Below are positions 1,805 through 15,798 of a DNA stretch of 64,000 nucleotides, one piece after another. Origin of the DNA: Candidatus Latescibacterota bacterium (lineage in GTDB: Bacteria > JAAXHH01); assembly GCA_022823465.1 (NCBI GenBank), contig JAJEHX010000029.1, forward strand, positions 7,852-71,851, read 5' to 3'. Position 1 is the stretch's first letter, and each line of letters opens with the position of its first letter. Made by a program: the position numbers and the translations under genes. The notes under the pieces were generated by a model, which ran no database searches, was not told the DNA's origin, and saw nothing but the letters and a program-made list of their open reading frames with translations.

Positions 1805-4475
1805 TGACCTGGAAGTCCGTATTGCCGAGGAGCGCGGCCCTGGGCGTATGATTCCCGGCGGCCGTGTTCCGGATCAGATTCAGCACGTCCTCGCGCCATT
1901 TCTCCGATCCGCCGGACAGCATGAGATCCACGTCTTCATAGTAAGGGACGGCCAGGTCATCGGCGGCGACCTGGAGCACCGGAATCATGGGATGACCGGG
2001 CAGAGGATGGCTGCCGACTCCTGCGACGATCAACTCCACGCCACTTGCCCCCAGTCCGGTCAGGGTCTCCACCCAATGGGTCGTCTGCGTCTCCATGACG
2101 TGTAATCCGGATACCGGTACCGGCTCGCCGTAGGTCAACGTCGGTTCAACGGCACCGTCTGCCAGGTGGTGCACGAAAGCCGGATGAGCAAGCAACGTGG
2201 CATTGTCCGGCACGACGACGGTCCCGCCCCCGCTCACGACGTCCAGGATCAACTGCGAAAGCGTTTCCGAAACGTCATCGGAAACAGGATCGGCCGTGGC
2301 CATCCCCAGTCTGAGATGGGAAAGACCGGCTTCACTGGCGGCCGGCCCGTCGCGATCCCCCAGATTTTCGACAAACCAGGACTCGATGCGACCGATTACC
2401 TTCTCGATGCCACCATCGAGCTGTACGCTGGCCCAGCCGAAATCACCGGGATCCACACCCCGGTCGACCAGTTGATGACGATAGAAATCGTTATGAGTGC
2501 GTTCACAGCCATGCTCCAGGAGTAAGGCGGCGGCCGTCATCGGATGGGTCAGGTAACCGGTCATGGTGCGGATGTACATCTCCTCCGACACACCGCCCGA
2601 GACGCCGCAACCCTCGGTGTGTACCAGGGCGACGAAACGGGATATGCCGCCGCTGCGCCCCACGCCTTTTTCATTCAGCCGTTCCGCCGCCATCCGGGCG
2701 ATCTGACCGGAGCAGAGGCTGGTGGGCAGGATGAGGCCGATCCGGTCGGTGGCGCGGGCGCCGTTCAATTCGTACACGGGCAGCTTGAAAGGAGGCGGAG
2801 ACGCACGGTCCGTTCGGACCGCCAGCGGCTTGCCCGTCGGCGCTGCCTGGTCGCGGAGGGCCCGCAGCCTGCTTCCGTCGGTCTGCCGCCAGTCGCGCCA
2901 AATCTGGGTCTGGCTGTGTCCCGCTTTTTCGCCGCAGGTCAACTCGCCCGACGCCGCCTGCAACGTCAGGTCAAGGGTCTGCCGGCCCAGTTCATCCATG
3001 GGCACGCCGTCCAGGTAGGCCCCCGCGTTCACGTCCATTTCACCCGAGAGCATCTCGTACCGCTTCGTGGTGGTCACGATCTTGATCGTCGGGACGAAGG
3101 GGAAGTTGGTGATGGAACCGTTCCCGGTGATAAAGAAGATGAGATTGCCGCCGGACGCCACCTGGCCCGCGATGGCTTCCAGGTCGTTGCCGGGACTGTC
3201 CATGAAGTAGTACCCCGGATCCTTCATACGGACCGCGTAATTGATGGCGTAGTCGAGCCGGACGTCGGGGTGGCGCTTCCGGGCCGCGCCGATGGACTTG
3301 AGCACGATGTTGTAGATGCCCCTGAGCTTGTTGCCGCCGGACGGATTGGCGTCGACCGACTGGCCGTGCCAGGCCGTGCGTTCCTGGAACCGCTCGATCA
3401 TATGGAGGAAGGTGCGCGCCGTCTCGATGTCCCGGACATTGTTCAGGACGTAGGGCTCGCCGCCGATCAGTTCGTCCGTCTCCGCGAGATTGGCCTTCCC
3501 CCCGAAGCGAATGATCTCCCGGGCCACGTGCGCGGCCAGGGGATTGCCTGATATGCCCGAAAAAGAATCCGAACCCCCGCATTGGAGCACGATGTTGAGA
3601 TGAGCAGCGGAAGCCGGCTTCCGGTTCACGCGGTTGACCGTCTCGAACCATCCGGTGACGATCTTCGCGCAACGCTCCAGATCCTCGTTAAATGCGCCCT
3701 GGAGCGTTTCGAAACGGTGCAGCACGTCCTTCAGCGGATAGCGGTTGATCCGCATGTAGTTTTCCAGCATCCGGTCCGACACGATTTCGGTTCCCCGGTC
3801 CACCGCGAGTACGGCGCCGACGTTGGAATGGACCATGAAACCCGCCAGCGTCCGCAACACCAGTTCACGGTTGTTCGGGTCCACTCCCGCGCCGCCCTCG
3901 GTGTGGGCCACGGCCACTACGCCGTCGATGTTCGGATACAGGTCCGCCCGGTCCTTAAGCATGGATTCCAGCCGGCGGACGAACCCCGCCGTCTGCGACG
4001 TTACACCCAGGAGGAGGATATAGTTGCGGGTACCGACACCCCGTGCGGCGCCCCGGTCGTATCCCTCGAAGGCCGGCGGACTGTCGCTTGCCTGTACCTG
4101 ATCGCCCGGGGTGAAGGTGGATTCGTCCAACTCGTAGGGCACCACGCGGTCCTCGAAATTCGGCTGTTCCGGGAGGTCGAAATCGACTTTTCGAACGCGA
4201 AGGGCGTCGAGTATGTCGGCGTTGCAGATGTAGTCGCCGGGGGCGATATCGTGGGTCGCCCGGCCGAAGGGCAGTCCCCAGGAAAGGACGGACTCCCCGG
4301 CAGGTATGGACCGGACGGCGAAGCGGTGCCCTTCGAGCAGCGTATGGGCAAGGGCAAAGGACACGCCGGCTTCGCCAGCCACCTCCGTACCGGCTTCCAG
4401 CCTTCGGGAGACGATGGCCACGTTGTCGCCGGGTCCGGCCAAACGCGCGATTTCATTCAACTGGCAGGCGGACAC
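1776..4475 (-). CDS. UxaA/GarD-family sugar-acid dehydratase (altronate/galactarate dehydratase-like), unusually long at 899 aa
   Basis: N-terminal SAF domain (GDNVAIVSRRLEAGTEV...GHRFAV). Central and C-terminal dehydratase regions follow (NYILLLGVTSQT, VVAVAHTEGG, LQCGGSDSFSGISGNP). Residues ~590-899 repeat the middle-domain signature (IGLILPTSLCSGQ; FVALVHTEGCG). Confidence 0.7.
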   Translation of the reverse strand: MSACQLNEIARLAGPGDNVAIVSRRLEAGTEVAGEAGVSFALAHTLLEGHRFAVRSIPAGESVLSWGLPFGRATHDIAPGDYICNADILDALRVRKVDFDLPEQPNFEDRVVPYELDESTFTPGDQVQASDSPPAFEGYDRGAARGVGTRNYILLLGVTSQTAGFVRRLESMLKDRADLYPNIDGVVAVAHTEGGAGVDPNNRELVLRTLAGFMVHSNVGAVLAVDRGTEIVSDRMLENYMRINRYPLKDVLHRFETLQGAFNEDLERCAKIVTGWFETVNRVNRKPASAAHLNIVLQCGGSDSFSGISGNPLAAHVAREIIRFGGKANLAETDELIGGEPYVLNNVRDIETARTFLHMIERFQERTAWHGQSVDANPSGGNKLRGIYNIVLKSIGAARKRHPDVRLDYAINYAVRMKDPGYYFMDSPGNDLEAIAGQVASGGNLIFFITGNGSITNFPFVPTIKIVTTTKRYEMLSGEMDVNAGAYLDGVPMDELGRQTLDLTLQAASGELTCGEKAGHSQTQIWRDWRQTDGSRLRALRDQAAPTGKPLAVRTDRASPPPFKLPVYELNGARATDRIGLILPTSLCSGQIARMAAERLNEKGVGRSGGISRFVALVHTEGCGVSGGVSEEMYIRTMTGYLTHPMTAAALLLEHGCERTHNDFYRHQLVDRGVDPGDFGWASVQLDGGIEKVIGRIESWFVENLGDRDGPAASEAGLSHLRLGMATADPVSDDVSETLSQLILDVVSGGGTVVVPDNATLLAHPAFVHHLADGAVEPTLTYGEPVPVSGLHVMETQTTHWVETLTGLGASGVELIVAGVGSHPLPGHPMIPVLQVAADDLAVPYYEDVDLMLSGGSEKWREDVLNLIRNTAAGNHTPRAALLGNTDFQVTRGLLGVSV

Positions 4476-4607
4476 GATGCCAGAGTCCTTCTATAATCGA
4501 GGTCGAATGTGGGATTGAGTCTCACTGCATGGACTGGCAAAGTAACATCCGTTCCGATGCGATGTCAAAGGTAAATCGGCGGCCGAGGAACCGCCTGGAC
4601 TTCACAA

Positions 4608-4860
4608 AGCGCGTCACGGTTCCGAAAGTGCGTCAAGGATTCACAGAGCGCGTCACGGTTCAGAAAGTGCGTCGCGGTTGACTAAGCGCGGCCCGATTGA
4701 CGATACGGCGGCAGGATTGACGATACGGTGGCGGTTGACGATACGGCAGTACGGTGTACATTGTCTATCCGGGTCTGGTCTCAGCGCGGCCCGGACATCA
4801 TATAAGTTCGTGGCGCCATATAAGCTTCGGCGACGTATAAGCTTCGGCGACGTATAAGTT
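4608..4860. repeat. Three different tandem-repeat families in the divergent intergenic region between the uxaA-like and DMFase-like genes
   Basis: (i) AGCGCGTCACGGTTCMGAAAGTGCGTC x2, period 39 (4608, 4647). (ii) GATTGACGATACGGYGGC x3, period ~20 (4695, 4715, 4734). (iii) (C/G)ATATAAG(C/T)TTCGGCGACG x4, period 17-20 (4798-4860). Confidence 0.7.
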
Positions 4861-4870
4861 CCCGGCGCTC

Positions 4871-6511
4871 GTGACTGCCAGAATCCGTACCACAATATAC
4901 GCCAGCCGGAGGTCCAAGATGCTTGTAGGGTACGTCAGCGACGAACGGTACGTCGCCATTCCAGGGGTCCTGCTCGAGTTCGAAGCCGGCGGAGCGTCCA
5001 TCGAGGCGCGCTCCCGGGCCACGGGGACGGTCTACGCCGACGTAGAGCCCGGACGGGAGTACAGGGTCACGCTGGCGAGCCGGGACTTCGGATTCAAGAG
5101 TGTATACATGACACCAGACGAGGACCGGCCCTATCATTTCCGGCTGCTGCGGGATGGCCTGCTGGGGTACATGTGGCCCAAGTGGGTCCGGTCCGGGGAG
5201 AAATCGGAGTTCCGCGTCCATGCCGTGGAGGCCTACCAGCTCGAGCTGTACCGGTATGGCTGGAGGAAGGAATACATCCGGAACATCGGCTGGTACGACG
5301 AGCACGGTCCCCGCGCCACCATGCAGATCACGCCCGACGGCGACTATACCCGGACCGGGGTCCGGTGGAACACCCAGGGATATACCAATCCCGCCCACAA
5401 ACAGTACATCGAGGCGCCGGAACGGTCTGGGCTCTACTATCTCCACGCTTCAACGGAAGCCGGCGGGTTCTTTTCCTTCCCCTGGATCGTCGCGCCCGCC
5501 GCGCCGACTGCCGACGTCGCCGTACTGGCCGCGAACATCAACTGGAACGCCTACAACAACTTCGGGGGACGCAGCAACTACATCCACGCGGACGAGTTTC
5601 CGCCGGTCCCCACGGTCAACGCCCGGTACGACCTGAAGCGATACACCGATTCCTCGCACCGGATGTACAGCGCCGACGACTACGCGCCGCTTTCCTTCGA
5701 CCGGCCCGAACCCATCAACCACGTCCCCGAAGGGGTCGAGGCCACCGATATGATCCGGGGGCGCGCGGCCTGCCACGTGGCCCCCGCGGAATGGCGGTTC
5801 CTGGCCTGGTTGGAGCGGGAAGGCTTCGGCTACGATCTCTACGCCGAGACGCATTTCCACGACGGTACGTTGCCCCTGGACCGGTATAGGGTGTTGATCA
5901 CGACCACCCATCCGGAATACTGGTCGCGCGACATGTACTACCGGCTCAAGGACTGGGTCTTCGAATCCGGCGGTCGGCTCATGTACCTGGGCGGCAACGG
6001 CCTGAACTGCGAGGTCGAGTTCGTTGACGAATACACCATGAAGGTCAAGAATGGCAATATCGATTCGCTCGACCGGCCCGGGGAGGGCATCGAAAGCCGT
6101 TTCAACATCTACAACGAGTCCGAGGCGAACCTGCTCGGCGTGGCCTTCACGCGGACGGGGATCATGACCAGCGCGCCGTACAGGGTGATCGATGCGGGGC
6201 ACTGGGCGTTCGAAGGCACCGACGTATCGGAAGGGGACATCTTCGGCGAGGCGAGTCTGCACGAACGGGTGCCCGGCGGTGCGTCGGGCCATGAGACCGA
6301 CAAGATCACTCCCAACTCACCTCCCAACACCCACCTGCTCGCCAAGGGAACCAACGTGGACGACGGCGGCGCCGAGATGGTCGTGCATGAAACGGACAGC
6401 GGCGGGATGGTGTTTTCGGCGGGATCCATCACCTATCCGTCGTCGATCCTCGTGGACGACGTGGTGTCGCGGGTGACGTCCAACGTGCTGAAGCGGTTTC
6501 TGGGTGATTGA
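4871..6511 (+). CDS. N,N-dimethylformamidase large-subunit-like (DmfA2-like) protein
   Basis: 546-aa ORF. The N-terminal beta-sandwich-like segment (VGYVSDERYVAIPG...YRVTLASRDFGF) and overall composition resemble the DMFase beta-subunit family. Assignment is by recall only; the true start is probably the M at 4919 (MLVGYV...). Confidence 0.45.
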   Translation: MTARIRTTIYASRRSKMLVGYVSDERYVAIPGVLLEFEAGGASIEARSRATGTVYADVEPGREYRVTLASRDFGFKSVYMTPDEDRPYHFRLLRDGLLGYMWPKWVRSGEKSEFRVHAVEAYQLELYRYGWRKEYIRNIGWYDEHGPRATMQITPDGDYTRTGVRWNTQGYTNPAHKQYIEAPERSGLYYLHASTEAGGFFSFPWIVAPAAPTADVAVLAANINWNAYNNFGGRSNYIHADEFPPVPTVNARYDLKRYTDSSHRMYSADDYAPLSFDRPEPINHVPEGVEATDMIRGRAACHVAPAEWRFLAWLEREGFGYDLYAETHFHDGTLPLDRYRVLITTTHPEYWSRDMYYRLKDWVFESGGRLMYLGGNGLNCEVEFVDEYTMKVKNGNIDSLDRPGEGIESRFNIYNESEANLLGVAFTRTGIMTSAPYRVIDAGHWAFEGTDVSEGDIFGEASLHERVPGGASGHETDKITPNSPPNTHLLAKGTNVDDGGAEMVVHETDSGGMVFSAGSITYPSSILVDDVVSRVTSNVLKRFLGD

Positions 6512-7480
6512 CTACAACTTCCGCTGGTACACCCCCGTCACCCGGTGGTTCGTGCCCTTTTCCAGGATCAGGTCCGCCCGTTCGCGGGTGGGAATGATGT
6601 TCTCGCGCAGGTTCACGAGGTTGATGTCCCGCCAGATACCTTTGGCCGTCTCCACGGCCTCCTCTGTGCTCAAACCCGCGTAGTGATGGAAGTAGGATTC
6701 GGGATTCCGGAAGGCGGTATCCCGCAGTCTCAGGAACCGATCGACATACCACTGCTCCAGGTCATGCTCCTCGGCCTCCACGAAAATCGAGAAATCGATG
6801 AAGTCGGACACGAAAACGCGGGGCGACGCGTCGCCGGCCGTGTGGTGGCCCGTCTGGAGGATGTTCAGCCCCTCCAGGATGATGATGTCCGGCTGCGTGA
6901 CCGTCTTTTCGACGCCCGGCACGATATCGTAAATCAGGTGCCGGTACACGGGCACGGTTACCGAGGCGTGTCCGGACTTCACGTCGGCCATCATCTGCAC
7001 AAGGCGCCGGAGATCGTAGCTTTCCGGGAATCCTTTCCGGTGCATGAGCCCCCGTTCCTCCAGCACGCGGTTGGGGAACAGGAACCCGTCCGTGGTCACC
7101 AGGTCCACCCGGGGATGGTTCGGCCAGCGGCTGAGCAGGGCCTGCAAGATTCGCGCCGTCGTGCTCTTCCCCACCGCCACGCTACCGCCGATTCCAATGA
7201 CGTAGGGCACCTTGGCGGCCGGTTTTCCGAGAAAGGTGTCCATGACCTGGTACAGGTGCTGCGCCGCGGCCACGTGGAGATTGATGAACCGCGACATGGG
7301 CAGGTAGACCTCGGCGACCTCGTCGAGGGAGACCATTTCGTTGATGCCGTGCAGTTCCTGCAGGTCTTCTTCGGACAGCGTCAGCGGAGTCGCGGCGCGC
7401 AGCTTCGACCACTCGTCGCGGGACATATAATTGAAGGGGGAAGGAGATGATGGGGACATGGGTGTCGTTCCGTCGATCAC
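6512..7480 (-). CDS. coaA: Type I pantothenate kinase
   Basis: Near-collinear with E. coli CoaA: [22 protein letters not shown]-loop [61 protein letters not shown], and C-terminal [12 protein letters not shown]. The start abuts the stop of the upstream gene. Confidence 0.9.
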
Positions 7481-8592
7481 GATCCGTCGATCACGGCCCG
7501 ATCGATCGTCTGTTGCTCGAGCAGTTCGGGCACGGGCTCCGCGCCGGCCCCGGGCGTATCGGAAAGGACCATCTGTGACGGTCCCGAAAGTCGCAGCGCC
7601 GGCGCGCTCAGGTCTTGCTCATAGAACCGGGTGCTGGGAAAAACATCCGACGGATATTTCATGTTGGGCAGGGTCGCCAGCGCCATGCAGAAGGACGCGC
7701 CGAGGGCCGATTCGAGCATGCCGCCCGTCCAGCAGGGAACGCCCTCCTCCTCGCAGATCCGGTTCACCTCCAGCGCCTGGGTCACGCCGCCAACCCGCGC
7801 GGGCTTGATGTTGATCCAGCGGGCCGCGCCTATGCCGATCGCCTTCCGGGCCTTGGCGGGGGAGGTGATACTCTCGTCCAGGCAGACCGGCGTCTCGATC
7901 CGGCTCTGCAGCGCGGCGTGGTCGACCAGGTCGTCGCGCATCAGGGGCTGCTCGATCATGGCCAGGTTATAACGGTCCAGTTTCCTGAACATGGGCAGGT
8001 CGTCCAGCGTGTATCCGCTGTTGCAATCGATATGAAATACGGGGTCGGGAAAAGCCGAACGGACCGCGGCAATCATTTCAAGGTCCCATCCCCGGCTGTA
8101 CTTCAGTTTGATCCTTTTGAAGCCCGCCTCAACGGCCTGCTCGATATTGCCCAGCAGCATGTCGATGCTGTCCTGCACGCCGAAGTCCGCTCCCACGTCG
8201 ATGACCGGCCCCTTGCCGCCGATCAGTTGCCAGAGCGGCTTACCCCTCAAGCGCGCATGCAGGTCCCACCATGCCGCGTCCAGCCCGCCCTTGGCAAAGC
8301 AGTTTCCCGCGACCCAGGCGCAGGCTTCATGCAGGTCCTGCCCAGTGTCGATCCTTTTGCCGATCAGCAGCGGTGCGAGCACGTCTCGCGTCACGGCGAA
8401 GACGCCGGCCGTGTATTCCGGGCTGTACGTCGGCCGGGCAAGGGGTGTCGTTTCCCCCCATCCCACGGCATCGCCGGTGTGCATCTTCACGAGGACGCTC
8501 TCGATTACGTCGTCACTGCCGTAGGCCGTGCGCCACGGGTAGATCAGGGGCATGGCGACGTGATAGAGTTCGACGGCGTCGATGACGGGCAT
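7477..8592 (-). CDS. Enolase-superfamily enzyme, MLE subgroup (o-succinylbenzoate synthase / N-succinylamino-acid racemase / dipeptide epimerase-like)
   Basis: Catalytic pattern KxK (IKLKYSRGW), D (HIDCNSGYT), E (IEQP), D (LDES), K (NIKPARVGG). 371 aa. Confidence 0.8.
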
Positions 8593-8599
8593 TGCGGCC

Positions 8600-9811
8600 T
8601 CAGCCTTTCAAGTCAGCCAGCAGACGTTCGGTGACCGCCTCCGCGAAGGCCGGATCGTTGATGTTGCAGTCCATCTCTGTCACCGACACCTCGGCGGAGA
8701 CGTTGGACTTGATGGCGTCATACAGCGCCCGGTCGGCTTCCGGCCACCAGAACTCGTTCCCGGGGCTGTCGAGAATGGACACGCCCTTCAAGGGGAGGAA
8801 GATCGATACCGGCCCGCTGGAGGCGTTGGCTTTCTCAGCGATGATCTCGCCGAGACGGGCGTTCTCCTCCACGTTGGTCCGCATCAGCGTGATGTTGGGA
8901 TTCCATTTGTGCAGCCTTCGGTCGCCATACTTCTCCGGCACGGTATCCGGCGCCCAGAAGTTGACCATGTCCAGGCAGCCCGGCACGATGACCTGAGGTA
9001 TGCCGGCCCGGCCTGCCGCATCCATTCTTTCGGGACCCGCGGTCAGGACGCCTCCGGCCAGTTCGTCGGCCCACTCCGTGGTGGTGATATCGAGCACCCC
9101 TTCGATCAGACCCTCGTCGATCAGGCCCTCCATAGTCCGTCCGCCCGCGCCGGTGCAGTGGAAGACGAGCACCTCGTAACCTGCATCCTCCATGATGGCC
9201 CGGGCCTGGTCCACGGCCTCGGTGGTGTTGCCGAACATACTGGCTGTGATCAGCGGTTTGTCCGCTGCCGCTTCCGGCACGTCGGTTTCCACCATGCCCG
9301 CGATGGCGCCCGCGGCGTTGGCGAAGATCCTGCGGCTGATGCGGTTGATGCCGGCCACGTCCACGACGGAGGGAATCATCATCACGTCCTTGATCCCCAC
9401 GTAATTGCTCGTGTCTCCCGCCGCCACGGTAGACACCATCACCTTGGGCACGCCGACGGGCAACGCCCGCATGGCGCTCGTGCCCACCGCCGTGCCGGCC
9501 GAACCGCCCATGCTGATGATCCCGTCGAACACGCCGACTTCATACAGGCCCTGCGCGACCACCGCGACGCCGTCCGCCATGGCGTTGATGGCCACGCCCC
9601 GGTCGTCGCGCTTCGTCAACGCGTCTATCGTCGTACCAGCGGCTTCGGCGACCTGGTCCCGCGACACGTCCGCTTCAAGCGTCGAATCTCCGATGACGCC
9701 CGTATCGATGATCAGCGTCCCGTGCCCCCGCCGCTCGATCTCGTCTTTAACGAAGGCGAATTCCTCTCCCTTGGTATCCAGGGCGCCTACGATGGCTATG
9801 GTTTTCGGCAT
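8600..9811 (-). CDS. UPF0261 (Tm-1-like ATP-binding domain) family protein
   Basis: Family-typical N-terminus KTIAIVGALDTKGEEFAFVKDEI; ~400 aa. Tightly packed with the upstream genes (coaA, enolase). Confidence 0.7.
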   Translation of the reverse strand: MPKTIAIVGALDTKGEEFAFVKDEIERRGHGTLIIDTGVIGDSTLEADVSRDQVAEAAGTTIDALTKRDDRGVAINAMADGVAVVAQGLYEVGVFDGIISMGGSAGTAVGTSAMRALPVGVPKVMVSTVAAGDTSNYVGIKDVMMIPSVVDVAGINRISRRIFANAAGAIAGMVETDVPEAAADKPLITASMFGNTTEAVDQARAIMEDAGYEVLVFHCTGAGGRTMEGLIDEGLIEGVLDITTTEWADELAGGVLTAGPERMDAAGRAGIPQVIVPGCLDMVNFWAPDTVPEKYGDRRLHKWNPNITLMRTNVEENARLGEIIAEKANASSGPVSIFLPLKGVSILDSPGNEFWWPEADRALYDAIKSNVSAEVSVTEMDCNINDPAFAEAVTERLLADLKG

Positions 9812-10157
9812 GAATCCCCTCTTATGGCAGATATCGTCTGTTGATACGGCCCTTCAAGATTCAACCTATCAAGTTACAGGTATGCATATTTATTGTACAT
9901 ATCTTTATACCGTGAGCCCAGGAGCGATAACGCCATGGTCACTTCGCTCTTGGACGCCCTCAACACCTGGTGCGTTGATGTCCCGGGACGGCGGCCCGAT
10001 GTACTTTGACGTCCGAGAATGGAGAAGGCCACCAGCGGGTAGTTTTAAGATTTAGTTCCTTGACAGGGACGGACAAAAACATTACTTATTACGTAACGAA
10101 TAGAATTTCCGATTTGCCGTAGAGTAAGGGTGCGTAAAACAGTGACTGGTTTAACTC

Positions 10158-10493
10158 TTGGATATCATCTTCAAATCCCAAAAGCTTGCTCAGATATTCA
10201 ATTCCGGGTTCAATCTCAAGAAGAAGTACGGGGCAAAGGCGGCACGCACCATAATGATTAGGATGTCAGTGCTGAGAAACGCCCGGACCCTGGAATTAGT
10301 GCCGAAAACCCCGCCTGACAGGTGTCATCAGCTAAAAGGCCGTCGTAAGGGACAGTTCGCGGTGGATATTGATGAGTCGCGAAGGCTGGTCTTCAAACCA
10401 AACCATGAACGGACTCCCCGCTTGGACGATGGCAGTATAGACCTCAACGGTGTGACGGCAATAAAGGTCCTCGATGTAACGGACTATCATTGA
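10158..10493 (+). CDS. higB: HigB-type toxin (plasmid maintenance system killer protein, COG3549/PF05015)
   Basis: C-terminal signature ...PPDRCHQLKGRRKGQFAVDIDESRRLVF...VTDYH matches the HigB killer-protein consensus (PPGNRLEKLKGDR.GQYSIRIN.QWRICF...VEIVDYH). Confidence 0.8.
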   Translation: MDIIFKSQKLAQIFNSGFNLKKKYGAKAARTIMIRMSVLRNARTLELVPKTPPDRCHQLKGRRKGQFAVDIDESRRLVFKPNHERTPRLDDGSIDLNGVTAIKVLDVTDYH

Positions 10494-10532
10494 AGGAGGA
10501 CGTACGAGGGCTATCACTGAAGGAGGAGATGA

Positions 10533-11621
10533 ATGGCGGCCGGAAAAAACCAATACCAGCCAGACTACGCGGTGTCGCCGGGATGGGTCCTGGAAGAGAG
10601 ACTGGACGCGCAGGGTATTACGCACGCTGAATTCGCTCGCAGGTGCGATCGTTCGCCGAAGCTCATCAGCGAAATCATCGCGGGGAAGGCTCCGATCGTA
10701 CCGCAGACCGCTTTTCAATTCGAGTTGGTGTTAGGCGTTGATGCCAGTATCTGGCTGGGCATTGAAGCCGACTATCGTCTTTACAGGATACGGGCCGCCG
10801 CTGAAAAAAAAGCAGAAGCTGCCGGCTTGTGGTCACAGTCATTTCCCGTTAAAGATCTTATCAAACGAGGGGTAATCCAAAAACCGGTATCTGAGGGTAA
10901 GGCTGTATCCGAGCTACTGGCTTTCTTCGGTGTAGCATCCATAAAGGCATGGAAGATGAAGTACGAAAACGTAAACATCGCTTTTCGTCACTCTCCGGCT
11001 TTTGAAAGCGACGGCGCCGCTTTGACGGCCTGGCTTAGACTTAATGAGATCGACGCTCTGGATCAGCGCTGCGCAAACTACAATGTTTCCAGGTTCAAGA
11101 AAGCGCTGGCTCAAGTACGACAACTTACGCGGATTCCGATCCATGAAGCACTAAAAAACGCCAGGGTACTTTTCAATGAGGCTGGGGTTGCCCTGTCATG
11201 GGTCAAACCATTGCCAAAAACAAGGGTGAGTGGCGCCGCGTGGTGGGTGTCACCCGGCAGACCGGTCGTTGCACTCAGCGCGCGTCACAAAACAGATGAC
11301 CATCTATGGTTCAGCTTGTTTCACGAAGCGGCACATATAATCTTGCATGGCAAAAAACACGTGTATGTCGACCGGGCGAATGGCGGGTCCGACGCAATTG
11401 AAACGGAAGCCAATCAATGGGCGGTTGATTTTCTTATTCCCAATACTGCCTGGGATAATTTTGTAGCCAAAGGTAGTTTTCGTAGTACAGATGTTCGCAG
11501 ATTTGCCGACGAACATAAAATCGCGCCAGGTATAGTAGTTGGGAGACTCCAGCACACGAAACAGATCGCATGGAGCCACCTCAACAGGCTCAAAACACGC
11601 CTGCGGTGGTCAGACGAATAA
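10533..11621 (+). CDS. HigA-type HTH (XRE) antitoxin fused to a C-terminal ImmA/IrrE-family (COG2856/DUF955) HEXXH metallopeptidase domain
   Basis: The N-terminus SPGWVLEERLDAQGITHAEFARRCDRSPKLISEIIAGKAPIVPQTAFQFELVLGVDASIWLGIEADYRL matches the HigA/VapI COG3093 consensus. The zinc motif LFHEAAHIILH (HEXXH) sits at ~aa 264. The gene lies 40 bp downstream of higB on the same strand. Confidence 0.8.
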   Translation: MAAGKNQYQPDYAVSPGWVLEERLDAQGITHAEFARRCDRSPKLISEIIAGKAPIVPQTAFQFELVLGVDASIWLGIEADYRLYRIRAAAEKKAEAAGLWSQSFPVKDLIKRGVIQKPVSEGKAVSELLAFFGVASIKAWKMKYENVNIAFRHSPAFESDGAALTAWLRLNEIDALDQRCANYNVSRFKKALAQVRQLTRIPIHEALKNARVLFNEAGVALSWVKPLPKTRVSGAAWWVSPGRPVVALSARHKTDDHLWFSLFHEAAHIILHGKKHVYVDRANGGSDAIETEANQWAVDFLIPNTAWDNFVAKGSFRSTDVRRFADEHKIAPGIVVGRLQHTKQIAWSHLNRLKTRLRWSDE

Positions 11622-11635
11622 ACAATAAGGGAATG

Positions 11636-11836
11636 ACATCCAGTTTGATGCAAAGAAAAGTGCCTCCATGCCCATCCTGCGGAGGACAACTGCGCCACGT
11701 CCGCGGCGCCCGCTATTGCTGCAAGTCCTGCCAGGAAGATTACGGTTTATTCCGAAAACGCGCGCCCTACACCGGCACGCACTGCGTCCGGCTTCACTCG
11801 CCGGCCCAGGCCAGACAGGCCGAGGAGGAAGGATAG
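11636..11836 (+). CDS. Small C4 zinc-ribbon protein (hypothetical, ~66 aa)
   Basis: MTSSLMQRKVPPCPSCGGQLRHVRGARYCCKSCQEDYG... with two CxxC pairs. Starts 15 nt after the HigA-ImmA stop. Weak RBS and no homolog recognised. Confidence 0.3.
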   Translation, partial: TSSLMQRKVPPCPSCGGQLRHVRGARYCCKSCQEDYGLFRKRAPYTGTHCVRLHSPAQARQAEEEG

Positions 11837-11869
11837 CGGGAACCAGGTCTGACGGTTTCCGCGTACAGG

Positions 11870-12892
11870 ATGAACTGGCTCAAAAAAACCTGGGGCTGGC
11901 TCAGATGGCTGGTCGCTCTGGGCATCCTCACCTACCTGTTCTATCTCTATCGCGACCAATACGCCGATTTCATCCGCCGCGAGATCGATTTTACCTTCCT
12001 GGGCATCGGAGTCGTACTGGCCACGACGGCGACCATACTGGCCTTTTTCCGTTGGTACCTTCTGGCCAGGGGACAGAAGCTGGTGCTGAGATTCCGCGAA
12101 GCCGTCCGCCTGGGCTTCGTCAGCAATCTGTTCAACTACCTCGCTCCGGGGACCGCGGGCGGCGACATCGTGCGGGCCGTGGGCATCGCGCGGCATCAGA
12201 AGTCGAGGCGTACCGTCGCCGCGGCCACGGTGCTGCTCGACCGGTTATTCGGCATGTTGACGCTGCTCGTCATAGGTTCAGTGGTCGCCCTGCTCAACCA
12301 GGACCTGTGGCGTCACCGCGAGGTCATGCTGGTCGTGCTGGCATTCTGGGGTGGTTCGATCGCCGGTCTGATCTGCCTGGCGGTTTCCCTCCAGGCGCGG
12401 GTCCTTCGCTGGTCCCTGTTCCAGCGGCTCACCCATATCCGATTCATCGGGCCGGTCGTTACCGAACTGGTCAACAGCCTGGCGCTTTACCAGACACACC
12501 GCAGCGTGTTAACCGGCGCCCTGCTCATCAGCCTGGCCAGCCAGGTCTTCATGCTTTCGGCATTCTACTGCTGCGCGATGGCGCTGTTGCCCGGTCCCGC
12601 CGCTCCGGATTACTGGACTCACCTGATGCTGATTCCCGCGGCCGAGATCATCAGCACCTTTGCCCCGGTGCCTGGCGGCGTCGGCGCGCTGGAAGGCGCG
12701 GTCATCTACATCTATCACCTCGTCAGCACGACCGCTGAGGTACCGATCGCCGCCTCGGTCGCCCAGGCCACGGGACTGGCGTCCGCCCTGACGTACCGGA
12801 TCGTGCGCATTTCCGTCGCCGCCCTGGGCGCCGGGTACTACATGGTTTCGGATAGAAGCTGGAAGGAAAGGCTGGGACTGGAGGAGTCCTGA
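11870..12892 (+). CDS. Lysylphosphatidylglycerol-synthase TM-region / flippase-like (UPF0104) membrane protein
   Basis: 340 aa and polytopic. Family-like motifs NLFNYLAPGTAGGDIVRAV and PGGVGALEGAVIYIY. Confidence 0.7.
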   Translation: MNWLKKTWGWLRWLVALGILTYLFYLYRDQYADFIRREIDFTFLGIGVVLATTATILAFFRWYLLARGQKLVLRFREAVRLGFVSNLFNYLAPGTAGGDIVRAVGIARHQKSRRTVAAATVLLDRLFGMLTLLVIGSVVALLNQDLWRHREVMLVVLAFWGGSIAGLICLAVSLQARVLRWSLFQRLTHIRFIGPVVTELVNSLALYQTHRSVLTGALLISLASQVFMLSAFYCCAMALLPGPAAPDYWTHLMLIPAAEIISTFAPVPGGVGALEGAVIYIYHLVSTTAEVPIAASVAQATGLASALTYRIVRISVAALGAGYYMVSDRSWKERLGLEES

Positions 12893-13002
12893 CCGTACGG
12901 GCACGGAGAAAGTGCCGGAAATTCCGACGTATCCCCGCACCCGGTCAGGGCCGAACCCCGGGTACTTTATTCCCCGGCGTCCGGCGGTTCATTGCTGATG
13001 TT

Positions 13003-15798
13003 TCACGAACACCCGCTCGTCGACCCACACTCACGACACACGTAACACGAACCGTTGCGGGTCATCAGGCTGCCGCAGTCCGAACAGGACGGTGCGTCGG
13101 CCTGGGCGGTATATACTTCGTGTTCCTGGTTCTCCTGCGCGGTCATCGTCTGGTCCATGGCGTTCGAGTGCATGGTGGAATCCATGTCCTTGTCTTCCAC
13201 GATCTCGGAATGACTGTCCTCGGGCAGGAATTTCACCGCGAGCCACCGGAAGATGTAATCGGTGATGGACTTGGCGATGGGCACGTCCTTGTTTCCCGTG
13301 AAGCCGGCCGGTTCGAACCGCATGTGGCTGAACTTGCGGATCAGGCTTTCCAGGGGCACGCCGTACTGCAGCGACACGGATATGGCCGTGGCGAAGGCGT
13401 CCATCATGCCGGATACCGTGCTGCCTTCCTTGGACATCCGCAGGAAGATCTCGCCGGGCTGGCCGTCTTCGAAGAGGCCGACCGTCAGGTAGCCCTCGTG
13501 GCCGGCGATGCTGAACTTGTGGGTAATGGCTTCGCGCTCGTCGGGCAGCCTGCGGCGAACGGGCTGGACCTCTGTGGCGTCTTCATCCTCCGACGCCTTG
13601 GTGCTGAGCGGCTGGGTGCGCTTCGACCCGTCGCGGTAGATCGCCAGGGCCTTGAGCCCCATCTCTCCGCCCTTCATGTACACGTTCATGACGTCTTCGA
13701 CCGTCGCCTCGTTGGGCAGGTTTACGGTCTTGGATATGGCGCCTGAAATGAAGGGCTGCGCGGCGGCCATCATCTTCACGTGTCCCATGTGGTGGATGGA
13801 GCGGCTGCCGTTTTCGGTACGGAACGCGCAGTCGAAGACCGGCAGGTGTTCCTGGAGCAGGTGCGGCGCGCCTTCGATCGTGCCGTGCTCGTCGATGTAG
13901 TGGACGATCCGCTCGATCTGCTGATGCGAGTAGTCGAGCTTCTCCAGGGCGGAGTAAACAGTCCGGTTCACGATCTTCATCGTGCCGCCGCCCACCAGGC
14001 GCTTGTACTTGACCAGGGCGATATCGGGCTCGATGCCCGTCGTGTCGCAGTCCATCATGAAGGCGATGGTCCCCGTGGGCGCAAGCACCGTGGCCTGGCT
14101 GTTCTTGTATCCGTGCTTCCTGCCATGGGCGAGTGCGTTGTCCCAGGCGGTCCGCGCGGCGTCGAGCAGGTTCTTGTCCACCATCTCCGCATGAATATCG
14201 TCCACGGCGTCGCGGTGCTTCTGCATGACGCGCAGCATGGGTTCGCTGTTTTCGTCGTAGCCGGCGAAGGTGCCGAGGTACTCGGCGATTTCCGAGGAGC
14301 GGTAGTAGCCCTGGCCGGTCATCAGCGCCGTGATGGCGCCCGCGTAGGCCCTGCCGCCGTCGCTGTCGTAGGGCAGGCCCATGGCCATGAGCAGCGCGCC
14401 GAGGTTGGCGTAACCCAGGCCCAGCTGACGGAAGGCGCGGGCGTTCTCGCCGATCTTGTCCGTGGGATAGCTGGCGTTGTCGACGATGATGTCCTGGGCC
14501 ATGATCATGATGTTGACCGTGTGTATGAATCCCACTGTGTCGAAGGTGCCGTCGTCGGTCAGGTACTTGAGCAGGTTGATCGAGGCCAGGTTGCACGCGC
14601 TGTTGTCCAGGTGCATGTACTCCGAACAGGGATTGCTGGCGTTGATACGGTCCGTGTTGGCGCAGGTATGCCAGTCGTTGATGGTCGTATCGTACTGCAT
14701 ACCCGGGTAGCCGCACTCCCATGCCGCTTCCGATATCCAGGACATGACGTCCTTCGCCTTCAGGCTGTCCACGGGCTTCTTCGTGGTGATCGACTTCAGC
14801 GTCCAGTCCTCGTCCTTTTCCACCGCGTCCAGGAAATCGTCTGTCACCCGGACCGAGTTGTTGGCGTTCTGGAATTGAATGGAACTCCATGCGTCGCCGT
14901 TCAGGGTCATGTCCCATCCGGCGTCTCCGAGGGCGTAAGCCTTGCGCTCCTCGTTGGCCTTGCACCAGATGAACTCCACCACGTCGGGATGGTCGATGTC
15001 CAGGACGACCATCTTGGCCGCCCGGCGGGTCTTGCCGCCGGACTTTATGGAGCCCGCCACCGAATCGGCCGCCCGCATGAAGGAGACGGGTCCGGAAGCC
15101 TGGCCGCCTGAAGACAGGATTTCCCTGGAGGAACGGATCCGGGACAGGTTCACGCCGGCGCCCGAGCCGCCCTTGAAGATCATGCCCTCGACCTTGCACC
15201 ATTCGAGGATGGATTCCATGGAATCTTCGACCGACAGGATGAAACAGGCAGAACACTGGGGCGTGTCTTCGACGCCCGCATTGAACCAGACCGGGCTGTT
15301 GAACGTGGCCCGCTGGTGCAGAATGATTTCTTTCAATTCGTTTTGGAATGCATCGGCGTCCTCCTCCGATGCGAAGTAACCCTGGGCGCGACCCCAGCCG
15401 GCGATCGTATCCGCCACGCGGTTGATCATATGCTTGACGCTGTGCTCGCGCTTCGGGGTGCCGAGGGGGCCTCGGAAATACTTGGACACCACGACGTTAG
15501 TGGCCAGCTGCGACCAGTCGGCAGGAATTTCCACGTCTTCCTGCTCGAAGACGACTTCGCCGCCGTCTCCCGCGATGGTGGCCGTCCGCTTCTCCCATTC
15601 CACGCCCTCGTAGGGATCGACGCCCGGATTGCTGTACAGCCGTTCGACTGTCAGGCCTCCCTCAACGGCCAGCGCGTCGGATGGCCCGTCGACGGCTGAC
15701 GCGTCTTCAACGGACACCTCGGCGGCGGATTCCTCCATCTCTTCTATCGCGCGGCCGGGGTTGTCCTTCAATTTCAAACCAAGTCTTTCTGTAGCCAT
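13003..15798 (-). CDS. nrdJ: Adenosylcobalamin-dependent (class II) ribonucleotide reductase
   Basis: 931 aa with a class II RNR active-site region (...NPCSEYMHLDNSACNLASINL...) and a C-terminal Zn ribbon (CSDCGSLMTRNGSCYVCRECG). Immediately downstream of nrdR on the same strand. Confidence 0.9.
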   Translation of the reverse strand: MATERLGLKLKDNPGRAIEEMEESAAEVSVEDASAVDGPSDALAVEGGLTVERLYSNPGVDPYEGVEWEKRTATIAGDGGEVVFEQEDVEIPADWSQLATNVVVSKYFRGPLGTPKREHSVKHMINRVADTIAGWGRAQGYFASEEDADAFQNELKEIILHQRATFNSPVWFNAGVEDTPQCSACFILSVEDSMESILEWCKVEGMIFKGGSGAGVNLSRIRSSREILSSGGQASGPVSFMRAADSVAGSIKSGGKTRRAAKMVVLDIDHPDVVEFIWCKANEERKAYALGDAGWDMTLNGDAWSSIQFQNANNSVRVTDDFLDAVEKDEDWTLKSITTKKPVDSLKAKDVMSWISEAAWECGYPGMQYDTTINDWHTCANTDRINASNPCSEYMHLDNSACNLASINLLKYLTDDGTFDTVGFIHTVNIMIMAQDIIVDNASYPTDKIGENARAFRQLGLGYANLGALLMAMGLPYDSDGGRAYAGAITALMTGQGYYRSSEIAEYLGTFAGYDENSEPMLRVMQKHRDAVDDIHAEMVDKNLLDAARTAWDNALAHGRKHGYKNSQATVLAPTGTIAFMMDCDTTGIEPDIALVKYKRLVGGGTMKIVNRTVYSALEKLDYSHQQIERIVHYIDEHGTIEGAPHLLQEHLPVFDCAFRTENGSRSIHHMGHVKMMAAAQPFISGAISKTVNLPNEATVEDVMNVYMKGGEMGLKALAIYRDGSKRTQPLSTKASEDEDATEVQPVRRRLPDEREAITHKFSIAGHEGYLTVGLFEDGQPGEIFLRMSKEGSTVSGMMDAFATAISVSLQYGVPLESLIRKFSHMRFEPAGFTGNKDVPIAKSITDYIFRWLAVKFLPEDSHSEIVEDKDMDSTMHSNAMDQTMTAQENQEHEVYTAQADAPSCSDCGSLMTRNGSCYVCRECGSTSGCS

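Follow-up and report, generated by a model that had tools for sequence, protein, structure and literature searches.

An intact two-gene cassette encoding a HigB-like protein and a HigA-metallopeptidase fusion, inserted in the chromosome of a Candidatus Latescibacterota bacterium

The stretch of DNA analysed here (the window, 64,000 nucleotides long) contains a real and intact two-gene cassette, in which a gene for a HigB-like protein precedes a gene for a HigA-type HTH domain fused to an ImmA/IrrE-type (M78) metallopeptidase. The cassette is an example of a kind that is already known, having been predicted in 2009 and tested in 2022. We favour, with a probability of roughly 0.6, the reading that it is a horizontally acquired, stand-alone higBA-type cassette whose protease-fused antitoxin represses its own operon and is switched by a stress or phage signal; within this reading we infer the toxin polarity, the self-cleavage, the trigger and any anti-phage role. 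Both open reading frames lie on the plus strand, as originally predicted, and the sequence motifs quoted for their products were confirmed. The elements of the locus are:

9820 to 11658, no strand: low-GC inserted islet that holds the two-gene module only
10060 to 10065, plus strand: TTGACA, the -35-like hexamer of the module promoter
10082 to 10096, no strand: operator-like inverted repeat TTACTTATTACGTAA, overlapping the expected -10 region
10158 to 10493, plus strand: gene for a HigB-like, RelE-fold putative toxin (111 aa, TTG start), assigned by profile, fold and alignment
10481 to 10527, plus strand: tandemly duplicated 27-nt segment with the 3' end of the HigB-like gene and the Shine-Dalgarno sequence (GGACTATCATTGAAGGAGGA / GGGCTATCACTGAAGGAGGA)
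10533 to 11621, plus strand: gene for the fusion of HigA-HTH, helical linker domain and M78 metallopeptidase (362 aa)
10572 to 10796, plus strand: HigA-type Xre HTH domain (residues 14-88)
11208 to 11564, plus strand: ImmA/IrrE (M78, COG2856) metallopeptidase domain (residues about 226-344)
11322 to 11336, plus strand: HEAAH zinc-binding and catalytic motif (H264, E265, H268)
11400 to 11402, plus strand: E290, candidate third zinc ligand
11648 to 11836, plus strand: small CxxC...CxxC zinc-ribbon gene, a host gene that adjoins the insertion and lies outside the module

The pair has been inserted into an intergenic site of the host chromosome. It is recognized as an insertion because a related locus, L084, is an empty site that has the same flanks without the pair: blastn aligns only positions 9508-9818 and 11659-12000 of the window to it. 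A second locus, L085, aligns with the window up to position 9911, and the left boundary of the islet is accordingly placed between 9819 and 9911. The GC content of the islet is 0.46-0.55, while that of the flanks is 0.62-0.67; the region 5' of the pair, which had been described as AT-rich, is indeed so (GC 0.46 versus about 0.65 in the flanks). Target-site duplications, flanking repeats and Rfam RNAs were looked for around the insert and none was found.

The original prediction had suggested that the module may include a third part, a small zinc-ribbon open reading frame. The reading frame exists, with its start probably at 11648 and not at 11570, but the gene belongs to the host. In the window it lies directly 3' of the fusion gene and it is conserved in the seven closest relatives, as would be expected of a module component; however, it is missing from the other 73 loci, and its only homologues are four, all within the same clade. 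The distance between zinc ribbon and fusion varies from 12 to about 720 nt, while the spacing to the downstream host gene, encoding LPG_synthase_TM, is stable (at most about 75 nt in 7/7 relatives, and about 35 nt in most). In locus L005 an unrelated gene separates the zinc ribbon from the fusion, and the zinc ribbon is still found beside LPG_synthase_TM. Loci L084, L086 and L087 have the same flanking genes, including the zinc ribbon, and no toxin-antitoxin pair. The constant spacing to the host gene and the presence at empty sites identify the zinc ribbon as a host gene; a three-part module is thereby refuted, and we give it practically no weight.

The two genes themselves form a conserved unit. 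Of 80 loci, drawn from many phyla, 77 carry a HigB-like reading frame, almost always immediately 5' of the fusion and typically at a distance of 17-18 nt, and a fusion of HTH and M78 domains follows downstream even of HigB-like homologues at 40% identity. In the window, the 27-nt duplication stretches the intergenic gap to 39 nt, whereas most relatives have 17-18 nt. Purifying selection acts on both genes: across eight syntenic genomes dN/dS is 0.17 for the HigB-like gene and 0.12 for the fusion, with no stops in either.

The first gene had been identified as higB, and this assignment is upheld by the fold, by profile matches to GraT and HigB, and by the catalytic residues. Both motifs on which it was based, KGRRKGQFAV and the C-terminal VTDYH, are found in the 111-aa protein. 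Its match to the Pfam family HigB-like_toxin (PF05015; E=0.012, 16.5 bits) is below the gathering score of 27; 21 of 32 family members match PF05015 (E<=1, best 1.3e-5), and a profile of the family finds the HigB-family toxins GraT (1.1e-4) and Proteus vulgaris HigB (0.013) in the PDB. The AF2 model (pLDDT 95.3) resembles YoeB, HigB, RelE and YafQ in Foldseek searches (E 6e-5 to 1e-3), with a TM-score of 0.75-0.79 to P. vulgaris HigB. The catalytic set of that enzyme (His54, Asp90, Tyr91 and His92) has equivalents in the window protein, with H57 aligning to His54. The putative catalytic residues are H57, R63, R76, D109, Y110 and H111 (the last three at the C-terminus), all of which are kept across the family. 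A family-specific insert is located at about residues 83-98 (P87, D91, G92, D95). The TTG start is common to 8/8 syntenic genomes, and in most of the 77 loci that have the gene the protein can be aligned over its full length from residue 1. As annotated in the deposited genome, the toxin gene is truncated.

The second gene product combines the two predicted parts. Residues 14-87 match the HigA profile TIGR02607 with an E-value of 1.9e-11 (43.6 bits, just under the cut-off of 47.7), and the HTH part also matches HigA of PDB entry 2icp (5.5e-9), chain 4mct_A and GraA. In the C-terminal part, which contains the motif FHEAAHIILH, residues 226-311 match Peptidase_M78 (PF06114; 2.6e-9, 37.4 bits) above the cut-off of 22. 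The model of the fusion has a pLDDT of 84; its N-terminus resembles HigA structures (TM 0.74-0.85 in Foldseek) and its C-terminus resembles CapP (7t5t, 3.5e-3), PprI (8sln, 3.7e-3) and IrrE (3dti, 1.6e-2) over 167-179 columns. The TM-scores to these proteases are low (0.31-0.34) because each chain aligns only in part. Sets of 81 and 30 homologues show H264, E265 and H268 to be invariant or almost invariant, and E290, an acidic residue downstream of the HEXXH motif, is kept in at least 90% of homologues.

The TTGACA hexamer and the putative operator were identified through comparative alignment; a consensus promoter scan reported no convincing promoter upstream of the pair and did not call TTGACA. 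The hexamer is kept in 8/8 syntenic genomes, and a TTGAC-like hexamer is found across the wider family 21-22 nt 5' of the operator. The operator has a family core of TTAC-N7-GTAA (family consensus GTTACCTaTTAgGTAAC), found across phyla in 67 of the 75 upstream regions, while shuffled sequences gave a mean of 0.16 and a maximum of 2. Outside the upstream regions, the core occurs eight times in 622 kb of the same loci. In the syntenic clade the operator block survives even where its surroundings are deleted. A palindromic putative operator in the pair's own promoter is the arrangement looked for in autoregulation by HigA antitoxins.

Decayed copies of the cassette are found as well. Loci L048, L052 and L054 have a deleted or truncated HigB-like gene next to an intact fusion with its HEXXH motif, and the operator is kept; in L085 only an HTH-encoding fragment remains. 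Loss of the HigB-like gene is the pattern expected if its product is the toxin and the HTH protein the antitoxin, although the argument comes from three loci that were picked via the fusion gene and hence from a biased sample.

In the favoured reading, the first gene product would be a HigB/RelE-fold, ribosome-dependent mRNA endonuclease acting as the toxin. The second would serve both as antitoxin and as autorepressor, with its HigA-type HTH neutralising HigB and binding TTAC-N7-GTAA over the promoter. This HTH is joined by way of the helical domain to a predicted-active zinc protease of the ImmA/IrrE (M78) type, which, by analogy with ImmA/ImmR, IrrE/DdrO and CapP/CapH, is proposed to become active in response to a stress or phage signal. 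The protease would then cut the HTH or linker part of its own chain or of its dimer partner; cleavage would derepress the operon and free HigB, leading to translation arrest as in abortive infection or addiction. The original prediction had proposed just such a release of toxin by self-cleavage. Inactivation of the antitoxin by a triggered protease is a reasonable proposal, but the simple model is not established: in PD-lambda-2, the one operon of this layout that has been tested, the polarity is the opposite. Also against the favoured reading stand the scores of the HigB-like protein and of the HTH, both under their profile cut-offs, and the absence here of the third gene that PD-lambda-2 needed for defence.

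Accordingly, the reverse assignment has to be weighed, in which the HTH-protease fusion is a growth-inhibiting effector that attacks host targets and is held in check by the HigB-like protein, or the two inhibit each other. The window fusion is a near full-length homologue of the PD-lambda-2 B component (PADLOC profile PD-Lambda-2_B, 2.3e-38 over residues 23-344; 30/30 fusion homologues match, the best at 5.4e-43), and the invariance of the protease active site also speaks for this assignment. However, invariant catalytic residues in HigB are not expected of a mere inhibitor, three loci keep fusion and operator without the HigB-like gene, a state that a fusion toxic on its own would hardly allow, and the A components are of different families (PF09907 in PD-lambda-2, PF05015 in 21/32 members here). 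We consider reversed polarity rather unlikely. A related and more speculative reading, which we hold to be unlikely, is a two-enzyme switch in which HigB RNase and M78 protease inhibit each other within one autorepressed operon. The protease would be the sensor, responding, like CapP and PprI, to ssDNA or a phage protein, and in a subset of lineages the switch might have been recruited as the front-end regulator or guard of large methyltransferase or R-M-like defence genes, the start of which overlaps its stop codon. If true, mutual inhibition would reconcile the odd polarity of PD-lambda-2 with the conserved active site of HigB.

Neighbouring genes also bear on a further reading, in which the pair would chiefly switch the transcription of nearby defence or mobile cargo in response to a signal, as ImmR/ImmA, CapH/CapP or BrxR do, instead of being a self-contained toxin-antitoxin system. 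Among 71 non-syntenic loci, 10 have a methyltransferase gene (1050-1145 aa) whose start coincides with or overlaps the stop codon of the fusion; other neighbours include AAA_15/21, AbiJ, TIR, ResIII and DUF499/DUF1156 proteins, a Leptolyngbya copy adjoins an R-M methylase, and the copy on a Methylorubrum plasmid adjoins cyclase and E2-domain genes. The resemblance of the fold to CapP points the same way. Against this, the insert in the window holds the pair alone, the neighbours in most loci are unrelated housekeeping genes, the operator lies in the pair's own promoter, and a catalytically intact HigB would be needless in a pure regulator; a purely regulatory role therefore seems quite improbable. 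It is more improbable still, to the point of being very hard to credit, that an ordinary higBA addiction module is at work here, with the protease domain as a vestigial, non-catalytic passenger. HigB and the HigA part would by themselves be enough for a complete canonical system, and there are short HigA proteins that align with residues 16-87 of the fusion, but HEXXH, H272, D280, E290 and the DHLWF motif do not vary between phyla, the full length of 362 aa is retained across the family at about 60% identity, and the fusion evolves with the low dN/dS given above.

The class of RelE/HigB proteins paired with Xre-M78 fusions is abundant and linked to phage defence, and its sole experiment gave a counter-intuitive polarity. 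The minimal two-gene version described here, with a defined putative operator and invariant catalytic residues in both enzymes, lends itself to finding out which of the two proteins is toxic and what role the protease plays, and occupied, decayed and empty natural alleles of one chromosomal site are available. The significance is modest: for genome annotation, this is an ordinary mobile toxin-antitoxin or defence cassette.

Fusion of antitoxin and protease had been presented as unusual, which does not hold. The HTH-M78 fusion family has thousands of members in many phyla, and such pairs are already named in RefSeq. Operons in which an Xre-COG2856 fusion accompanies a RelE or PIN toxin were described by Makarova, Wolf and Koonin (2009); over half of all COG2856 occurrences are Xre-COG2856 fusions, and the class was a predicted three-component toxin-antitoxin type, purely computational, with 15-22 RelE pairs (PMC2701414). 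The window pair shares with that class the Xre-fused COG2856 Zn-protease, the operon with a RelE-family toxin and the mobile distribution, including plasmids and phages. Neither the subfamily of 111-aa HigB proteins that carry the conserved insert nor the TTAC-N7-GTAA operator was resolved in the 2009 description. The profiles support the ImmA/IrrE fold; the fused architecture is in part already curated or characterised, which goes some way to refuting the original prediction on its own terms.

The closest tested system is PD-lambda-2 of E. coli ECOR42, assayed for anti-phage activity by Vassallo et al. (2022), an operon of a HigB and an Xre-peptidase that defends E. coli against phage (PMC9519451). 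The fusion alone was toxic when overexpressed and the HigB-like protein rescued growth; a third gene, C (PF14350, P4 Beta-like), was needed for defence (PMC9519451). Both operons are toxin-first, with a HigB-like protein of the RelE superfamily followed by a HigA-HTH/ImmA-IrrE fusion. They differ in the A component, which is PF09907 in PD-lambda-2 according to the supplement of that paper (PMC9519451) and PF05015-type here: neither PD-Lambda-2_A nor PF09907 matched the window HigB-like protein or any of its 32 homologues. Component C is also found in PD-lambda-2 only, PF14350 being absent from the two-gene insert and from 71 related loci, whose downstream neighbours include no recurring third gene of this type. 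The comparison was made via PADLOC profiles and the Pfam accessions in the paper supplement. Matches by tblastn on enterobacterial plasmids were considered as candidate PD-lambda-2 proteins and rejected; they are ordinary short HigA proteins, aligned over residues 16-87 only. A search of the available literature found no newer mechanistic work on PD-lambda-2 or on HigB with M78 fusions.

Canonical HigBA systems (P. vulgaris HigB-HigA and P. putida GraTA) share the toxin-first order, the RelE fold with His...Asp-Tyr-His, the HigA Xre-HTH antitoxin and the inverted-repeat operator in the promoter. The solved structures nearest to the two parts come from cognate pairs, HigB/HigA in 4mct and GraT/GraA in 6f8s. 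Here, in contrast, the antitoxin has about 270 additional residues that include a predicted-active M78 protease, and the toxin has an insert of ~15 residues and falls under the Pfam gathering score. RosmerTA (RmrT/RmrA), in which protease-fused antitoxins are validated, with varied toxins and phage defence, shares an antitoxin with HTH and ImmA-type protease; its partner is an RmrT type, whereas the window has a classical HigB, which matched none of the PADLOC toxin profiles. The RmrA profiles cover only the peptidase core (residues about 173-317; 1e-8 to 1e-4, the weakest 2e-4). The locus was not assigned to RosmerTA or to CapH/CapP, the match being limited in both cases to the peptidase core and the architecture being different.

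ImmA/ImmR of ICEBs1, IrrE(PprI)/DdrO of Deinococcus and CapP/CapH of CBASS regulation have in common with the fusion the HEXXH M78 fold and an Xre HTH. In those systems a repressor and a distinct protease regulate other genes; here, both are in one polypeptide that is paired with a toxin and predicted to control it. To the known kind the present analysis adds the conservation of the pair, the TTAC-N7-GTAA putative operator over its promoter, the purifying selection on both genes and the finding that, where one of the two has decayed, it is the HigB-like gene.

The two genes lie exactly where the original prediction had placed them, and the locus holds a genuine toxin-antitoxin or defence cassette that is intact and was acquired horizontally. 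Its features, in window coordinates, are as follows.

within 7477-9811, minus strand: MR_MLE-type enolase-superfamily gene, UPF0261 (Tm-1-like), upstream flank
10060-10065, plus strand: TTGACA, upstream of the TTAC-N7-GTAA copy
10082-10096, unstranded: operator-like TTAC-N7-GTAA copy, from comparative alignment
10158-10493, plus strand: HigB-like gene, 111 aa, TTG start
10533-11621, plus strand: fusion gene (HigA-HTH + M78), 362 aa
within 11870-15798, plus strand: LPG_synthase_TM/flippase-like gene, downstream flank
within 11870-15798, minus strand: class II ribonucleotide reductase, downstream flank

The small protein matches Pfam HigB-like_toxin (PF05015) at E=0.012 and 16.5 bits, under the cut-off of 27, yet the wider evidence is consistent with the proposed HigB identity. 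A 32-homologue profile matches two HigB-family toxins of known structure, GraT (6f8s_B, 1.1e-4) and P. vulgaris HigB (4mct_B, 0.013), and in the profile alignment the catalytic His54 of the latter falls on H57. The AlphaFold model (pLDDT 95.3) resembles RelE, YoeB, HigB and YafQ, the top TM-scores (0.75-0.79) being to P. vulgaris HigB. H57, R63, R76 and a C-terminal D-Y-H are conserved family-wide, as is an insert of ~15 residues (P87, D91, G92, D95) that is absent from the canonical 92-aa HigB. The deposited gene call covers only 79 aa (P0133; 100% identity, 71% of the query), apparently from an internal Met; this annotation is truncated, since the TTG start is kept in 8/8 syntenic genomes (the window and its closest relatives, L001-L007) and the homologues are 111 aa long.

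Both domain assignments made for the fusion protein hold. Residues 14-87 match HigA TIGR02607 at 1.9e-11, and residues 226-311 match Peptidase_M78 at 2.6e-9, above the Pfam threshold. In the structural model (pLDDT 84.4, pTM 0.74) the N-terminus matches HigA structures with TM 0.74-0.85, and the C-terminus matches CapP, PprI and IrrE. Homologues show little or no variation at H264-E265-A-A-H268, H272, D280 and E290 or in a DHLWF motif.

The fusion protein is a member of a very large family, with at least 5,947 clusters at E<=1e-3, including hundreds of full-length members (~362 aa, roughly 60% identity); relatives are named 'ImmA/IrrE family metallo-endopeptidase' or 'HigA family addiction module antitoxin' at source. 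Species-representative genomes hold 177 relatives, and the best 80 of these come from Latescibacterota, Gemmatimonadota, Acidobacteriota, Alpha- and Gammaproteobacteria, Binatia, Nitrospirota, Chloroflexota and Verrucomicrobiota. Others occur on 115 plasmids and a few phages. A HigB-like ORF accompanies the fusion gene at 77 of the best 80 loci, nearly always directly 5' of it and typically with a gap of 17-18 nt, and most alignments span residues 1-111; contig ends truncate L023 and L035. Downstream of HigB-like homologues at only ~40% identity, an HTH_3+Peptidase_M78 fusion of 362-367 aa is again found. No recurring third gene was detected at the non-syntenic loci; the two-gene pair is the conserved unit. 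One Verrucomicrobiae MAG (L079) carries two complete tandem pairs, at 3639-5065 and 6358-7787, whose HigB-like proteins are 41% and 44%, and fusions 56% and 53%, identical to those of the window.

The pair's stretch has a GC content of 46-55% versus 62-67% in the flanks. The host flanks (7477-9811 and 11870-15798) carry ordinary metabolic genes. Both flanks are common to L001-L007, and the closest relatives are labelled Latescibacterota or Gemmatimonadetes MAGs. One related genome, L084 (GCA_009840045.1), runs from UPF0261 across 197 nt to the zinc ribbon, followed by LPG_synthase_TM and RNR, and the pair is missing; the L086 and L087 sites are likewise empty, and L085 holds a decayed remnant in which the HigB-like gene is absent and only fusion residues 1-118, the HTH-encoding part, survive. 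By homology to the L084 and L085 sites, the insert runs from ~9820 (or 9911) to 11658; neither flanking repeats nor an integrase or RNA gene was found with it. A single chromosomal site is thus seen in three states in the clade, empty (L084:3804-4000), remnant (L085:3319-4000) and occupied (window 9820-11658), providing a natural allelic series.

The suggestion that the small zinc-ribbon ORF completes a three-part module is not borne out. Judged from these contexts, which are decisive, it is a host gene, because it is present at sites that have no pair. Among the 80 loci it occurs only in L001-L007, within ~75 nt of the LPG_synthase_TM gene in all seven (~35 nt in most), while its distance to the fusion gene ranges from 12 nt to ~720 nt; in L005 an unrelated 152-aa ORF intervenes. 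Only four homologues were found in a 5.8-billion-cluster database.

Both genes are free of stop codons across the syntenic clade; their median dN/dS values, 0.17 (HigB-like) and 0.12 (fusion), compare with 0.19 for the adjacent host gene. Values of dS are ~0.7 for both module genes, higher than the 0.38 of that host gene. The L001 module (3626-5086) is a mosaic relative to window 10158-11621: no other fusion lies nearer to that of the window (93% aa, dS 0.38), but its HigB-like protein has diverged further than any other of the clade (72% aa, dS 0.86), which suggests recombination within the module.

Alignment of the eight syntenic genomes reveals a conserved upstream block, CCTTGACA...AAAACATTACTTATTACGTAACGAA. 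Its core, TTAC-N7-GTAA (consensus AAAncGTTACCTaTTAgGTAACGAAAA), is present in 67/75 upstream regions across the whole family, against a shuffle mean of 0.16 (maximum 2) and just 8 occurrences in 622 kb elsewhere in the loci. Its most frequent starting point is position -33 relative to the start codon of HigB-like, 21-22 nt past a TTGAC-like hexamer, and therefore overlaps the -10 region. These comparisons argue strongly for an operator that would be bound by the conserved HTH, i.e. for autorepression. An AT-rich upstream segment of ~120-150 nt (window ~9920-10040), with an imperfect palindrome at 9918-9953, is absent from L002, L004 and L005 and present in the other syntenic genomes. A 27-nt tandem duplication (10481-10527; GGACTATCATTGAAGGAGGA / GGGCTATCACTGAAGGAGGA) of the HigB-like 3' end and Shine-Dalgarno widens the window's intergenic gap to 39 nt; gaps are also enlarged in the syntenic relatives (43-79 nt), where most family members have 17-18 nt.

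The best-supported model, with a probability of about 0.6, is an autorepressed higBA-type module in which the fusion's own M78 domain inactivates the antitoxin. Comparative data point to the HTH binding the operator over the promoter; by homology to cognate HigB-HigA and GraT-GraA, it would also neutralise HigB. By analogy with ImmA/ImmR, IrrE/DdrO and CapP/CapH, a signal may activate the M78 domain, which could cleave the HTH or the linker, in cis or across the dimer. The operon would then be derepressed and HigB freed to cleave ribosome-bound mRNA, with growth arrest, abortive infection or addiction as the probable result.

The main rival is reversed or mutual polarity, as was seen with the E. 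coli anti-phage system PD-lambda-2, in which the fusion was toxic when overproduced by itself and its HigB-like partner relieved this. At three loci, all found through the fusion gene, HigB-like has decayed and the fusion gene is intact with its HEXXH: an in-frame internal deletion leaves ~19 codons in L048, where the operator is kept, and residues 87-111 and 26-111 remain in L052 and L054. L085 keeps the HTH-encoding part only. A decayed toxin gene beside a persisting antitoxin is what is classically seen; together with the invariant HigB active site it favours HigB-like as the toxin, with the caveats that the loci are only three and were picked up by way of the fusion gene. In L054 (3600-3977) an upstream reading frame has taken the place of the first 25 HigB-like codons; fusion with a neighbouring gene, or truncation by one, may explain this.

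A second rival is that the pair regulates neighbouring defence genes. The commonest immediate downstream gene is a large N6_N4 DNA methylase (10/71 non-syntenic loci), the remainder being a few other defence-type genes and otherwise housekeeping genes; PF14350 was not found among them. This role could hold in the methyltransferase-linked subset; it fails for the window because the insert there carries only the pair. The methylases (1050-1145 aa) start at or overlap the fusion stop codon (L016:5083-8247, L027:5083-8316, L051:5044-8481; also L026, L032, L057, L063, L066, L073), which suggests a HigB-like/HTH-M78/large methyltransferase operon in Nitrospirota, Binatia and Acidobacteriota MAGs. 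DUF1156 occurs in two downstream genes, and AAA_15/21, AbiJ, TIR, ResIII and DUF499 are other neighbours. On Methylorubrum extorquens CM4 plasmid pCMU01 (L082; NC_011758.1 264598-270638) a homologue of the fusion (42% identity) is divergently oriented beside two genes, one with an adenylate/guanylate-cyclase domain and one with an E2 domain, in a CBASS- or Pycsar-like arrangement; no HigB gene is annotated upstream, and the locus resembles CapH/CapP-type regulation.

The fusion had been thought unusual, a view contradicted by earlier work; the HigB-like + HTH-M78 architecture is already known and common. In over half of its occurrences COG2856 is joined to Xre, many of the fused genes share an operon with a RelE or PIN toxin gene, and a three-component TA with LexA-like or ImmA-like cleavage logic has been proposed (Makarova, Wolf, Koonin 2009, PMC2701414). 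RefSeq names such pairs 'killer suppression protein' and 'HigA family addiction module antitoxin'. Antitoxins fused to a protease also define RosmerTA, but the RmrA profiles align to the window fusion over its peptidase core only. PD-lambda-2 came from a functional screen and comprises a HigB-like protein, a HigA-HTH/peptidase fusion and a P4 Beta-like gene (Vassallo et al. 2022, PMC9519451); no newer mechanistic study of it or of HigB + M78 fusions was found in the literature searched. The window pair has exactly the layout of its first two genes, and the fusion is homologous to PD-lambda-2B over nearly its whole length (2.3e-38; 30/30 homologues match). The window toxin is PF05015-like rather than PF09907, a different RelE-superfamily family, with no match to PADLOC profiles, and component C is absent. 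The pair should not be classed as PD-lambda-2 because two of the three component tests (A and C) failed. It is related to PD-lambda-2 and probably works like it, and it offers a clean, minimal model in which to study the mechanism of the class.
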